Origin: Ascidiella aspersa | Taxonomy: Eukaryota | NCBI GenBank assembly: GCA_963924565.1 | Contig: OZ004609.1 | Span: forward strand, 26,226,001 to 26,290,000 | Length of the DNA: 64,000 nt | Direction: 5' to 3' | Part shown: in pieces, positions 6,503-12,500 of the stretch | How positions within the stretch are numbered: the stretch's first letter is position 1 | Layout of the letters: every line of letters begins with the position of its first letter | The notes under the pieces: model-generated | The model's input: the letters and a program-made list of their open reading frames with translations, nothing else | Database searches by the model: none | Told to the model about the DNA's origin: nothing | Program-made: the position numbers and the translations under genes

Positions 6503-9500
6503 TCAGCGCTGTGATTCGCCGCCGTAAAATATGAGAAGACTTTCTCCAAGCGCTCGCTCATTTCTTGCCTTCCAATTAGGAAAATCCCCACAAGGAAATT
6601 TTGGGTTTTCACTTTGAATTCCTCCGACGCAAAACTCACTCGTATCGCAATTCAACGATCTGAAATAAAATGGTAATATAAGAAAGCTCGTCTGAAGTTT
6701 ATTAACTTGCAAACTTGTTAGTAATAATTGGTATAAAGGGTGCGTTCGGAACGCTTTTCGAAATCAATCAGCCTAATCAGGATTATAGTACAAGGCAAGG
6801 CAGTAAAACAACAAGCCGGTGGTGAGATACTCCGACCATACCGGGACCGTTGCTCTACCAACTGATTTGAAGGGGATCAACAACTCGTATTTATCAACTC
6901 CAGAATGGATTTATCACAGAATATACATTGTGTATATGAACTTTCTATTTGTTAATATTGGCTTAGTTTTTCATTGTACCCGATCAGCGATCACCTATAA
7001 AGTTATAATGGATTTCTAAATATCAAGCTATATAGGCAATTTTGCCAATTTTTTTTGTAGCGTATGACCTCAATGTTAATCTTTTTATTTACTGTACATT
7101 AAAGCCGGGCGGCCTGTTTAAAAAAAGGTTGCCATTCGCTGCGATCTTGTTTCTGTATTAACTTACTCCGCTCCTGGACAAATGGCGCTCGGAAGTCCTC
7201 CAGTGCCATAAGGGCGCAAGTGAACGAACCCTGGGTTGCTGTGTGTTTTTGCTGATCGCGGTAGCCAGTCAGTGACGTTTGCATTTCCTCCTTTGATGAA
7301 CTCAACCGGAACGACAAGACTTTCGTTGCGAAGACTGCAACCGATGTCTCGGCCGTGAGGAGTTAAAGCTAAAAGAAACAATCGTAAATTAAGGAAGTAC
7401 ACTGACATTAGTAATTTTGCTGAGTCTAAGTTGTGTTGGATTTAAGTAATCCGTATAAAGTTTTTCGACACTATGCTTTAACGGAATCAGGATAAATGCA
7501 TCAATGCCAAAATTAAGTACATAGTAGAAGTAACCTTACATAAAATTGGTTACTAATATTGCTGCGTTGAGTGTCGCAAACTTACGCAACGAAGTGGATA
7601 TGATTTCCAGGTATTTCGCGACAACTTCGCGCAATTCCTCATCGGTGATTTTCTTAGCTCCCGCTTTCGACAAAAGTATATATCTAATCGGAAATAAACA
7701 CACATAATAGTTTAATATATAACTTAATGTATAAAATCAATAAATTATTCTTGACAGTGCGCTTGATCGGCGACGTTAAATTGTACCGAACGAGAGTCGA
7801 CTTACCCAAACAATGAATTTCTGACGGCTCCTTGTAGACGTACTATATTGTTTAGGATGTCAGTCGACGTTCCCCAAGTTTCAGTTCGCTGCAATTCAGG
7901 AGTAACTGAACCCCATTCCTTTAAACCGTATAAATATTAGCACCTATACGATTAATAATAACCGCTATATTTTTCGTAAATCTATTATTCAAAGTGATAT
8001 TTGAATAACACACATAACTAATCGTCGGAAAAAAAAACAATAACATTTTATTTTGTGAAGACCATTAAAATCTGCTACCAATAGACTCTCTAAACAAAAA
8101 TATGCCTATATTTATAACTGCTTGATTTTATTTTTTTTATTTTTATTGGAAACATATTCTTCGTTTAATCAGCCGGATTCATGTGAAGGATAAGCATAGC
8201 AGTACTCTAGACTCTAGATCTAGAGCAGGGTTCACCAAACTTTATATGATAAAGGATGGATAAATGTAAGCATTCGCGATGGCGGGACGGACATAAAACT
8301 TTGTGTCAAACGAAGAAAACAAAAAAAATATATTTAACAAAACATTTTCAGTAAGATTTTCCAAATTGTCGTTTAATTTAATTTTTTCGATTTGGTTATT
8401 TTATATTTGCATCTAATTTTAAATAAGTAGAAAGACAAAAAGAAAAACAATAAAGCGATAAAACACCTGAGGATTAGAAATAACGAAATATGCTTGCAAG
8501 ACGCTTGGGTCCGTGGTGGCGTTGTAGGCGTGCTGGGCAATATAAGACACCGAAAAGTTACCGCGACTAAGGGAAGCCGGTCCATGAGTAACTAGAGAGC
8601 CCCCTCCATCTGCGCCCAAATTCGTTTTCACCTGAAGAAAATGCAAAACCGCGATAAAAAACGTAACACTATGTATGTTATAGGACTTAATGAATTACAC
8701 TTTTGCGCCAGTTGCATATAATAAACATTATAAGTTTTATTTCACTTCACGCAATGTGGGATTACATGCAATGTTAAAGTATACACTCTAAATCAGTTTT
8801 ATAAAATTCATTAAAATAATTTATGGATTATATATGTATACGTAGGTCAGGTGTATTCTGTAAGCATCATTAATTAATTACCTGCAATAGATTACGTCAC
8901 CAATTATAATATCACTGCCTCCAAAACTAAAACAATTGCTTTACAAAAAACACTTCATATATGTAAAGAAGGTTGGGCGCTAATATTATGTTTATAATTA
9001 TTATCTGCTATAGATGTTCAGAATTGCTCATAAGAGCATTCCTTTGTGTTTTTAAACGTCACACGTATATGGACCTATTTAGTCTAATAGTTGGCAGATT
9101 AATACCTTAAAATTAAAATCACTTCCTTTGCTGATCCAAGATAACATGAAGAAAGGATAACCAGTGCTAGTGTTCAGCTGAATGCCGGGTCTTTCGTACT
9201 TCTCCTCGTAGGTAATGTCTTCAAATTGGGCATCGTTCATTTTAAACGAAAGCTGAAAGACATTGTTCGACGTTATTTCAGCAATAAGGCGATAAACATA
9301 TTCGCCATTATCGTTTGTAAAACATATTCGCCATTATCGTTTGTCAGTGTTAACCAGTGGTCCTCAAGGGGAGCCCTTTGGTTTCCTTAGGGATGAATTT
9401 TTAAGTTTGGGAAGGAAATTTGTTCCAGGGAGGATAAGGGAGAAAAAGTGGATGGAACAAACAGATAAGTTATTTAATCGTTTATATATACGCAATAAAG

Positions 9501-12500
9501 CTGGTTTAACTGTGACTAATTATAAAGAGTCTATTATACCCATATTCGTCTATTGTCTCCGCACAGTAAAAATCATCTAGTTTAGAAACAATTGGTCTGC
9601 AATCTGTGTACCACACACTTCGCAAATTGTAAGTTCATTAAAATATTTTATTGGTGCGCTTTCCAAATTTACTCTTTAAAGTTAGTAAGGTTCCAGGCCG
9701 GAGTCGGTTAAAACAACCCGCGTCCGACGCCGACACAAAAAATGAATCCGAGTCCCTGTCGCGCCAAATATATGCCGATTTCGTCAAGTCGCGAGTCCGG
9801 CTCGGACACATCTTTATTTCATTTATTACGTAACTAGAATTAATCAAAGTATTCTTTCGAATAACAAAATCTGCCTGAATCCGAATGGTGAAAACAAACG
9901 ATTCTGGTTGCACATCAATGATAAAGAATAAACTAAGTATAGAACTTAGCAAACCGAAAATCAGTTTGTTTGTATGTAATAAAAAGATAAATATTGGTTT
10001 AGGTTTTTATAGCGTATTCTTGTCTTATGTTGTGTTATGTTTTTAGATACTGAAGATGCTTTATAGCGAAATATATTTATCTTTTTATTACATACAAACA
10101 AACTGATTTTCGGTTTGCTAAGTTCTATACTTAGTTTATTCTGTAACTAGAATTAGGTCGATATTCAGCAGTCAACTCATATGGGTGTCATACAACAATT
10201 TATCCCCACACAATACGTGGTTGGCAAACATGCTACCACACGCTATTCTATCTTTATATTTTACTTTTCTCGGCCTTATCATTAACAATATTTGTTTCTG
10301 CACAAGCACACGTCGGACTCGGGACTCAGTTTACATAATATATTGCTTTATTTGTTGCCTGTTTAACTGTATACGTTTGTTTTTCTGTTAGCAGTGGAAA
10401 TCGAACTGAGAAAAACGCCGTGAATTCGGCTGGGGAGGAATTGCAGTGCTTGGGTTTGTAAGGAAAGAATCCGAAAACTGATGACCAGTATATGATCTTA
10501 GGATGGCTATAACACAGAATATATACACTCTTTCTTATATAAGCAATCAATGTTTTGGTTTGCTGTACATTATATCCTTGACCAATTGTACATAAAAGAA
10601 TCCTGCGAACGACCAAATTACCTTTGTAACACGTTTATCCATTAGTTTCCTTTGTTTACAAAAGATCGACGCCATACCTTTGTAAGCTATAGGCCTACGT
10701 GTGTCGTGTCAGCTACTTATATCCGACGCACACATTCTCAAATTGGAGCGTAATGAGTTTTAAGTACAGCCGAACGCATGTATTGAACCGTTCACTACAA
10801 AGTAATTTCATAAATTGATATCGTACCATGTTTCCATTGTCAAACATGTCAAGGCCCCCGTCGCTTATTTTTTGCTTGTTGCTGTCGTCGTAGTTGTGAG
10901 AGTACCAGTTGGGAACGAGCGCAGTAATGCAGCTCGACTGTTTCCTGATGGTGTGAATCAATTTGTTGATGTCAACGCTTTTTGGCGTAGGAACTGGAAG
11001 AGAGAAAAGTGTTATTTTACATTTTAGACATGTAATTGTTTTTCCAGGTCTTAAAAATGAAACAAGTGTTAAAGCTTAAATATCTACTGTAGAACGCCGA
11101 ATAAGAATGATTCCGTAATTTACACACGAGGATTGGATTTTTTTCGGATTCTTGACGACAGACGTGAGCAACCAGAAAGTTTTAGATGTCTAGTTTATCG
11201 TGTATTTTATATATATTTATTTCTTACAATTGTCAGAAATAAAATGATCCTGAAAAAGTAGGGTCAGCGTCAGCCTCCCTGCTAAAGACTGTAGTGGTTC
11301 AAGGATGTGCTCTAAAGTCTAAACCACTAGAATTAAATCGAAATGCTGCTAGTTCTAGTTGTAATCAGAGTCGCGAATTTATTGTGCGTTATATTTCAAG
11401 TTCTAATCTAATTTTCCTTGTGGAAAAATTGGTAGTCAAACTGTAATTTTAGGCGTTTCAGACGGATTTAACTGTAATTCAATTAAAAAAACATTGACAT
11501 ATGTCCATTATAAAGGCAATTTTATACAGATCGCGAGTTAATTAAAGGTAATTCCGTAAATAAAATTTGATTTATATTTTTTCGCGTTGCTCAACGATCT
11601 ATAATTGTAAGCATTGGATAGCCATAAAACATGATAGGGCTTAATGTAGAGTGCATGAATAATTGTCGACTAAGAGCTTTTGTGTTTACTGTAAGTTTTA
11701 TGATGTATTTGCTCATGTGAGAGAATTATTCTATGCGAAGCATCGCTAACTCACACCCAAGTGTTAAATGCTAAATGGCCTGTTTTGCCATTATCTCTGC
11801 GGTCAGCAGTGGGATTGTCTATAGCTATTTTAGACCGCCGCTATCCGCTTGTAAAACTAACTCTTCTTACTTATCGACTGTGCTCTTTACAGCTTTGATA
11901 TTTGCAAGTAGCATCTCCTATATGCTAACTTGTTCCGCCGACTATAGTTTGAACTGGTTGTTCGCTTATCAGCTAATACAATTATAATCACCAGAAGTAT
12001 CGTGGTTGGCTAACGAGTTAACGCACGCAACTTAAAATTGGAGTCAGGAGTTCAACAAACCAAATTCGTGCCCCACATTAACAATCCCAAAAAGTTTTTT
12101 TACCGTTTGCTTTGGCGCGCAGAGGATAATATTCTTTGTACAAGTTCCTTAAGTTGCCTCCGTGGTCGTCCAGAAACCCGCTGGTTGTTTTGTAGGCGAG
12201 CGTCGATAATTGCTTGTAGTCTTGTGCTGGTGAATTGTTGGGAACGTGCCAAATCATTAAGTTGTTTCCCTGGTATTACATTGCATTGCATTGCATTGTA
12301 GTTACAACATTGGTTTAATGTTGTAATATACGTTATAGTTATAGCTACAAGACAGCTGGTCGATTACGTCTAATTAATAATGTAAACGAACAAAATAATA
12401 AATCCAAATATTTTTGTTACGTTTAAACTGAAATTTTGTTTTTGTAATCAAACAGCACACAGTCGACTATAAACGTAATGCGATTCCGCCAAATCGAAGC

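Follow-up and report, generated by a model that had tools for sequence, protein, structure and literature searches.

Intelectins and a split-lectin gene in Ascidiella aspersa

The closest described relatives of the gene considered here are the intelectins of vertebrates and lamprey, for which structures are available from human intelectin-1 (4wmq, 4wmy, 6usc), Xenopus (XEEL, 4wmo) and the lamprey serum lectin (LSSL, 7e1e). In the vertebrate proteins, sugar binding involves positions 243, 244, 260, 262, 263, 274, 288, and 297 (PMC8324875); of these, W288 and Y297 constitute an aromatic box, in which the replacements W288A or Y297S shift specificity with binding retained (PMC12800186). The structural calcium is bound by a HENxxxGxCxxGD motif and two further Asp residues (PMC9682848). 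In this work, we analyzed a window of 64,000 nucleotides from the ascidian Ascidiella aspersa (assembly GCA_963924565.1, contig OZ004609.1, positions 26,226,001 to 26,290,000 of the forward strand), which carries intelectin genes in tandem, copies A and B, on the minus strand. Both halves of the intelectin body are alike in these genes and the above structures; in a relative (P0047), they align in sequence to the structures with E values of 1e-47 to 1e-56. Like the vertebrate and lamprey intelectins, this class keeps the structural-calcium motif and the core cysteines. Unlike them, it has a 230-residue insert in place of a short linker, mostly changed sugar-site residues, an aromatic loop shorter by about 10 residues, a short N-terminal collagen stretch, and a different intron set.

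A second parallel is offered by the collagenous defense lectins of the lectin complement pathway, the ficolins and mannose-binding lectin (MBL), which, as in copy B, combine a signal peptide, N-terminal cysteines, and Gly-X-Y triplets including PGKxG with a lectin-type head; copy B differs in having just eight triplets and in that its head is a split intelectin. PGKRGS is present in both window copies, and we take this lysine motif to be only a partial match to the MASP-binding consensus. Proteins with the insert in the same place and a likewise eroded sugar site are already present in databases, namely, F6QVV8 of Ciona intestinalis (“cortical granule lectin-like,” 579 residues), LOC100185757 (Ciona, Phallusia), LOC143452591 and LOC143468938 (Clavelina), and LOC120332903 (Styela). 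These long ascidian intelectins are uncharacterized, with the fibrinogen domain as their sole annotation, and the window pair branches apart from them.

A five-exon cassette of phase 1-1

Copy B is a 14-exon gene that runs on the minus strand from 15754 to 6503 and encodes 582 residues in the order signal-like stretch, CxCxC motif, eight Gly-X-Y triplets, intelectin N-half, insert, and intelectin C-half. The insert cassette comprises exons 8 to 12 (167+147+165+113+98 = 690 nt) and adds 230 residues (234-463); all five exons have AG/GT ends, with phases of 1|0|0|0|2|1, and the frame is open with the cassette as well as without it, when 352 residues remain. The borders of exons 4 to 14 were exactly reproduced by a custom-written spliced aligner, using a profile of 18 database relatives from which both window copies were excluded. 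The gene model and this independent alignment thus bear out an earlier note on this DNA, which had described, from the letters alone, a five-exon, 690-nt cassette bounded by phase 1 on both sides with a 352-residue remainder. The single-exon motifs named in that note were all located on the minus strand where expected, and its statement that the vertebrate proteins are limited to a short linker here holds for nine of the nine intelectins compared. It had reported the first insert exon in copy A, where we find the whole cassette.

Exon 1 (15647..15754), which is 74% identical between the copies, carries the start codon, a signal-peptide-like stretch (residues 1-22, by eye), and the CxCxC motif. 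The opening five Gly-X-Y triplets lie in exon 2 (14871..14939) and the final three in exon 3 (14340..14367), which has a counterpart in copy A. The fibrinogen-like lobe begins in exon 4 (13023..13126), as placed by both the gene model and the spliced aligner; exon 5 (12811..12943) retains the structural-calcium motif, a 15-residue stretch fitting the consensus of PMC9682848; exon 6 (12657..12748) contributes the conserved Asp168; and exon 7 (12104..12269) ends the N-half with the phase-1 donor that opens the cassette. Within the cassette, insert exon 1 (exon 8, 10827..10993, residues 234-289) encodes a helix and the motif IxDGGxDM[YF]DxGN, insert exon 2 (exon 9, 9106..9252, residues 290-338) strands with a conserved Tyr304 and PF, insert exon 3 (exon 10, 8467..8631, residues 339-393) the GADG and DPS motifs, and insert exon 4 (exon 11, 7806..7918, residues 394-430) the TD loop, in which selection is strongest in the paralogs. 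Insert exon 5 (exon 12, 7586..7683, residues 431-463) supplies the last strand and the closing helix, and its phase-1 donor closes the cassette. The C-half follows in exon 13 (7167..7368), and exon 14 (6503..6659) holds the eroded sugar site (CDTSEFC, with a short loop) and the stop.

Copy A has the same 14 exons with a complete cassette and encodes 581 residues. Its exons 1 to 8 are at 5128-5021, 4322-4254, 3120-3093, 2710-2607, 2549-2417, 2295-2204, 1847-1682, and 1283-1117 on the minus strand, and its exons 9 to 14 directly precede the window start (locus L009). The modeled donor of its exon 3 (3093-3092) is GC instead of GT. Copies A and B share an intron pattern with one further gene (L013): the phase-2 intron found at residue 309 of most paralogs is missing, and the last internal insert intron is at residue 431 versus 437 in most paralogs, a pattern (window 7806-7683 and 9252-9106) that amounts to an intron loss and a six-codon shift.

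The split gene has to be weighed against the possibility that the five exons are a separate nested gene or a modeling artifact. The RNA consulted was about 6% of one stranded run with the same species label, at a depth under 10. Reads on the gene's strand connect exons 5-6 (four reads), 6-7 (six), 9-10 (three), and 13-14 (eight) of copy A; fewer than three span each of the joints 7-8 and 12-13, by which the cassette is attached to the halves, and insert exons 8, 11, and 12 have a lower depth than their flanks, both of which a nested gene or an artifact would explain. Against this stand the open frame with matching phases, the same position of the insert in 27 loci, joint 9-10 on the gene's strand, and 18 full-length database proteins. 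A profile of an intelectin with its insert found the insert in 17 of its 34 matches, and the first-exon profile described below added one more to give these 18, of which 10 are named (from Ciona intestinalis, C. savignyi, Phallusia, Clavelina, and Styela). The eight unnamed relatives, of 552-658 residues, come from contigs of 1.8-2.3 kb that barely exceed the coding sequence; as such contigs are too short for introns, the insert and the halves likely share one mRNA. Hence, we consider a nested gene or an artifact to be highly improbable. The skipping of the cassette from exon 7 to exon 13, which the earlier note had raised, is not supported so far, with fewer than three reads on the skip joint in this low-depth RNA.

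Both copies look to be transcribed at low depth. Exon 5 reads have copy-A letters at some sites and a copy-B letter at another, and, at 93% likeness, three to four exon 13 reads have copy-B letters; the notion that all reads come from copy A is contradicted by these. The copy B bin that includes most of insert exon 1, where copy A is just 72% alike, has a depth of 0.66. The joint table of copy B was swamped by intronic repeats; high-copy repeats occupy 9540-10207, 11544-12211, and 13214-14215, with a contig depth of up to 1e5, and similar short ends near 13260 and 14147 suggest a nonautonomous element.

The insert is a mobile domain without a family name

The insert is a real mobile domain that lacks a family name. 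Whereas a word search with one exon gave no match, a profile built on eight genomic occurrences of the first insert exon recovered 141 proteins among 7,989 candidates scored. Relatives align over positions ~9-227 of 230, such that the borders of the domain are those of the cassette. A 28-sequence profile of the domain matched 1,756 representatives at E values of up to 1e-3 (723 at 1e-30), the best 150 of which were among the 270 relatives inspected overall. In ascidians, full-length copies occur in tandem, with eight in one Phallusia protein and two or three in proteins of Clavelina and Styela, or alongside CUB, sushi, vWD, C8, TIL, trypsin, and Ig domains. Examples without an intelectin are LOC104266555 (Phallusia, Ciona) and LOC143447335, LOC143447129 (with CUB), and LOC143453091 (with sushi) of Clavelina, which have two to eight copies; this genome has a counterpart with the same intron phases. 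Many bacterial proteins have one or two copies, and the bacterial neighbors are type IX secretion system (T9SS) tails and HYR, choice-of-anchor D, S8, and Ig-like domains; the best 80 of 120 matches gave at least 75 bacterial loci, largely from Bacteroidota and Verrucomicrobiota. The domain is also encoded by 30 viral loci, and a PHROG scan of 13 proteins detected one fusion to a baseplate/tail-fiber connector and one to a virion protein. Many of the viral contigs (L130-L159) encode a protein of ~300 residues that is mostly composed of the domain; three of these records are labeled as giant-virus metagenome-assembled genomes.

Across these contexts, the domain resists assignment: Pfam, applied to sets of 19 and 14 carriers, gave nothing above its cutoff that covered the domain, NCBIfam gave nothing on a single-domain protein and named only sorting or neighboring domains in other members, no PDB sequence matched the insert at an E value of up to 1, and the PHROG matches in the 13 proteins scanned all lay outside the domain. 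PF00147 was matched by the fibrinogen-like lobe of full-length relatives, to which the window exons align; Pfam searches with ten single window exons gave no match (0/10), single exons being too short for one.

Symmetric 1-1 modules are the classic signature of exon shuffling in extracellular proteins. In an unrelated gene of the same genome with three repeats of the domain, repeats 1 and 2 have internal phases of 0,2,0,0,2 and are flanked by phase-1 introns, and where the cassette was cleanly lost from an intelectin, one phase-1 intron remains. Given these shared intron phases, the phase-1 flanks, and the clean loss, the insert behaves as a shuffled 1-1 module. The earlier note's view of it as an unassignable, shuffled module therefore holds, and the other animal and bacterial contexts that it wished surveyed extend to viruses. 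The nonintelectin genes with the domain in this genome are L019-L020 (contig 1, three repeats), L021-L022 (contig 2, at least four), and L015 (contig 6, at least one).

For conservation, 372 copies were thinned at 65% identity into 54 tunicate-like and 236 other copies. In both groups, I276, D278, G279, G280, D282, M283, D285, G287, N288, Y304, G344, D346, G349, Y432, and L434 are conserved in at least 84%, and D379-P380-S381 is retained in 72-96%; copy B has every one of these residues.

All named animal carriers among the relatives inspected are ascidian, and one named carrier is a green alga. In a FastTree analysis of the 290 copies, the tunicate-like copies lie on one side of a weakly supported branch and the intelectin inserts form one group (0.86); among the nearest outsiders is the phage baseplate fusion, in a 57-row set with a support of 0.99. 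On the 270 relatives inspected, a viral or bacterial source by transfer is a lead rather than a result. In a recent gene-transfer screen of Ciona (PMC13390645), the domain is absent from Table 1 and from a term search of the whole text; if a microbial origin is true, it would be a case of gene transfer that the screen does not list.

Predicted fold

The insert is predicted to fold on its own, as had been proposed from the letters of the window. A natural single-domain relative was modeled with a predicted local distance difference test score (pLDDT) of 70.8 and a predicted template modeling score (pTM) of 0.74, and the AlphaFold model of a full-length insert-bearing relative (P0257) has a mean pLDDT of 88.8 and a pTM of 0.81, with pLDDT values of 68-98 across 10-residue blocks of its insert. 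There, the insert is a helix-flanked beta-sandwich in which two helices precede about eleven strands and one helix closes the domain. The intelectin halves of this model superpose on human intelectin-1 (4wmq) with a Z score of 37.7 and a root mean square deviation (rmsd) of 2.9 over 272 of 283 residues, and the template modeling (TM) score by target is 0.85.

The best fold neighbors of the insert are the galactose-mutarotase-like sandwiches of carbohydrate enzymes, at Z scores of 8-9.7 and rmsd values of 3.5-4.3 (8.8 with 4.3 and 9.7 with 3.5 for the best two), a likeness that is consistent though weak. Over ~175-190 aligned residues, the N-terminal domains of glycoside hydrolases of GH94 (5h3z, 5nz7), GH65 (7fe3), and GH116 (7w2t) and the polysaccharide lyase PL26 (5xq3) share a similar order of strands followed by a helix; identity is below 13%, there is no match in sequence, and these values are near the background for a common arrangement. 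An ESM Atlas search peaked at 0.82, which is the chance level, and a Foldseek search with the single-domain model returned a single match (E value of 6e-4, TM score of 0.24).

These neighbors, which also include aldose epimerases, taken together with the invariant acidic residues, raise the possibility that the lectin carries, as its insert, a small carbohydrate-active enzyme of an epimerase- or lyase-like kind. The N-terminal domains of GH94 and GH65 are noncatalytic, however, and the matches are middling and mostly to such domains; further, both the occurrence of up to eight tandem copies and the loss of the acidic residues in expanded, intact-looking paralogs are a better fit to a binding module. 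An enzymatic role hence appears improbable.

One gain, two losses, and an eroded sugar site

A search with one intelectin exon found at least 36 intelectin loci in the genome. Insert exons were detected by profile in 24 of these; in three more (L036, L048, and L050), the stretch bounded by the same introns is diverged; and nine have none. As the cassette is in the identical position in 27 of 36 loci, its placement is not due to chance. In 22 of these 27 loci, phase 1 holds for both flanking introns; of the others, three are cut by the 10-kb fetch and two are discordant. Of the nine loci without the insert, eight have almost no introns and none at the cassette site, whereas the ninth (L024) shares its intron set with the insert class and has a single phase-1 intron at the cassette place.

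When only the halves were used to build a tree (55 rows, 266 columns; nine vertebrates as the root), the 35 insert rows all fell into a single clade (100/99), in which three rows lacking the insert are nested; the insert-bearing forms are thus a distinct intelectin class, as the earlier note had anticipated, and by this tree the insert was gained once and lost twice. The window pair stands on a long branch of its own. The eight nearly intron-free genes (L026-L032 and L037) are vertebrate-like intelectins in a separate clade (95/94), with a largely canonical sugar site. One insert-free member of the insert clade (P0266) has a different insertion of ~160 residues in the N-half; this stretch looked lectin-like by eye, an assignment not retained, and it has no Pfam match. 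On contig 2, at ~28.6-29.2 Mb, at least 12 insert-class intelectins (L033-L035, L038-L040, and L042-L047) are recent segmental copies, whose inserts have lost the DGGxD and GADG motifs and are hypervariable; the models of L045 and L046 are identical, and those of L038 and L039 are poor and may be broken.

In copy B, the structural-calcium set is H122 E123 N124 D125, G133 D134, D168, and D556, with the middle Gly one place off. The sugar site reads CDTSEFC, with Ser at 262 and Glu at 263, followed by the shortened 288/297 loop; copy B is therefore classed as an intelectin-fold variant and not as a canonical exocyclic-diol lectin of the intelectin-1 type. For residues 260-263, we take the identities from the vertebrate rows. 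Counting on 34 insert rows (one further row has no parsable motif), Glu262 is present in seven (10/35 by column), compared with 7/9 vertebrate and 5/8 classical tunicate rows; an equivalent of His263 is in one, compared with 4/9 and 5/8; and the Trp-GYG loop is in none, compared with 8/9 and 3/8. On these residues, the insert clade has kept the structural-calcium site and lost the vertebrate sugar site, which the eight insert-free paralogs largely keep. The site is missing as well from the three clade members without an insert, so erosion does not need a present-day insert, and the idea that the site erodes only together with the insert is ruled out. The cysteine right after the insert presumably pairs with the sugar-site cysteine, in which case the insert would exit the fold near that site.

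One could argue that the intelectin site still binds sugar with an altered specificity, leaving the insert as an accessory second site, a spacer, or an aid to oligomerization. The tolerance of vertebrate sites to W288A or Y297S (PMC12800186), the acidic residues retained in the site region of copy B, and the two losses of the insert are in line with this. The site is altered at most positions, though, and differently across the clade, while the structural-calcium residues stay; the halves give no selection signal; and a mere spacer would not hold the Asp/Gly motifs invariant from bacteria to ascidians. We regard an accessory insert as rather unlikely.

Diversification of the insert in paralogs

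Among three young paralogs on contig 2 (L043-L045), identity is 97-98% in the halves and 87-91% in the insert. Their ratio of nonsynonymous to synonymous substitution rates (dN/dS) is ~2.5 in the insert versus 0.12-0.28 in the halves, and replacement and silent changes number 45:5 in the insert versus 7:8 in the halves (Fisher's P = 0.0009). With five paralogs, a self-written implementation of the M2a-versus-M1a test gave twice the log-likelihood difference (2dL) as 52 for the insert, with omega at 8.8 on 14% of sites, and 0 for the N-half. Tests per exon with separate trees were strong for two of the five segments (24.0 and 24.9) and weak for one (8.4). In two more clusters, the insert values were 18.0 and 11.8 and those of the halves at most 1.5, such that no intelectin half tested in the three clusters showed positive selection. 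The selected sites (272, 286, 291, 340, and 409-417) adjoin the conserved motifs in sequence, and most acidic motif residues are gone from the selected clusters. In copy-B numbering, positions 300-303, 308, 334, and 423 are selected as well. These results come from few sequences with model-derived exons, in which gene conversion or uncollapsed haplotypes may play a part; L025, L036, L038, L039, L041, and L050, with poor models or cut within the insert, and L046, identical to L045, were left out.

Positive selection names no cause, and selection might stem from gamete or self/nonself recognition if the partner bound by the insert is one of the animal's own proteins or matrices, such as the egg coat, sperm, an allorecognition molecule, the mucus net, or the tunic. 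The domain is found in tandem arrays and next to vWD, C8, TIL, CUB, and sushi domains, which are typical of matrix and mucus proteins, and the Xenopus cortical granule lectin is an intelectin for which an egg-coat role is described in PMC9434060. On the other hand, the domain, invariant residues included, is also present on secreted bacterial and on viral proteins, which fits a general surface ligand, and ascidian intelectins of an unspecified class are reported in endostyle cells (PMC10980280). An own partner of the animal is, in our view, unlikely.

A proposed recognition head on an intelectin scaffold

Taking the above together, we propose, with a probability of about 60%, that the insert is a recognition head for which the intelectin part serves as an oligomeric scaffold. 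A five-exon, 230-residue mobile domain, self-folding by prediction, splits the lectin body of a likely secreted collagen-intelectin. The phase 1-1 cassette, whose internal phases recur in the tandem and mosaic ascidian proteins and which has bacterial and viral relatives, entered one intelectin lineage a single time, before the sampled ascidian genera split as judged from the tree, and was lost twice. The two intelectin halves are predicted to come together in an ordinary intelectin fold, beside which the insert forms a beta-sandwich of its own, and the clade has, in sequence, kept the structural-calcium residues and given up those of the vertebrate sugar site. In the conserved form, including copy B, the near-invariant loops with D278, D282, D285, N288, D346, and D379 may bind calcium together with a glycan or another surface ligand; the collagen stretch and the cysteines would provide multivalent display, by which microbes could be agglutinated or tagged. 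In the expanded paralog clusters, as distinct from copy B, the acidic motifs were lost and the insert diversified under positive selection beside them, and these clusters might vary one binding surface. Secretion, oligomerization, a role in defense, and, as the earlier note had also suggested, calcium or glycan binding by the insert and pattern recognition are what we infer from these features.

Several observations weigh against this proposal. The joints between the cassette and the halves (7-8 and 12-13) have fewer than three reads in the ~6% of one run; two of the five per-exon tests detected no selection; and the insert is under purifying selection between copies A and B (dN/dS of 0.17, with 0.18 and 0.28 for the halves). 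Silent divergence between these copies is 1.03 in the insert and 0.25 and 0.40 in the halves, which suggests gene conversion of the halves. The selected paralogs lack the acidic motifs, so the calcium/glycan and the diversification steps may describe different functions. As for the models, the predicted match to carbohydrate-enzyme sandwiches reaches just Z scores of 8-9.7 at rmsd values of 3.5-4.3, and the predicted fold is that of relatives such as P0257, standing in for the window protein. At the sugar site, the insert-free clade members have lost it too, Glu262 survives in 7/34 insert rows, and copy B retains Asp260 and probably Glu274.

It is possible, though we would lean against it as a whole, that a calcium/glycan-binding domain of phages or bacteria became the 1-1 module in an intelectin and that the sugar site of this intelectin decayed afterward, to yield a dominant second class with a constant oligomeric scaffold and a variable head under positive selection. 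Such a history would amount to a variable lectin system, encoded in the germline, in the sister group of vertebrates.

Other features of the window

Other open frames of the window are at 25851-26525 (minus strand), 41350-42261, 52558-53409 (plus strand), and 60717-61196. These are probable exons of neighboring genes and a frame of 283 residues that resembles a transposase fragment by eye.

Implications

Among the literature listings on ascidian and tunicate intelectins that were consulted, we found no account of the insert; long tunicate intelectins may have been mentioned before, including in supplements. Throughout the chordates, intelectins are regarded as a single, conserved kind of 35-kDa lectin, whereas 27 of the 36 loci of this genome are of another build, which database labels conceal. 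The selected sites constitute a direct list for mutagenesis, and natural pairs with and without the insert exist. The domain family, with more than 1,700 representatives in bacteria, viruses, and ascidians, is small enough to be expressed alone, and the identification of its ligand would annotate all of them.

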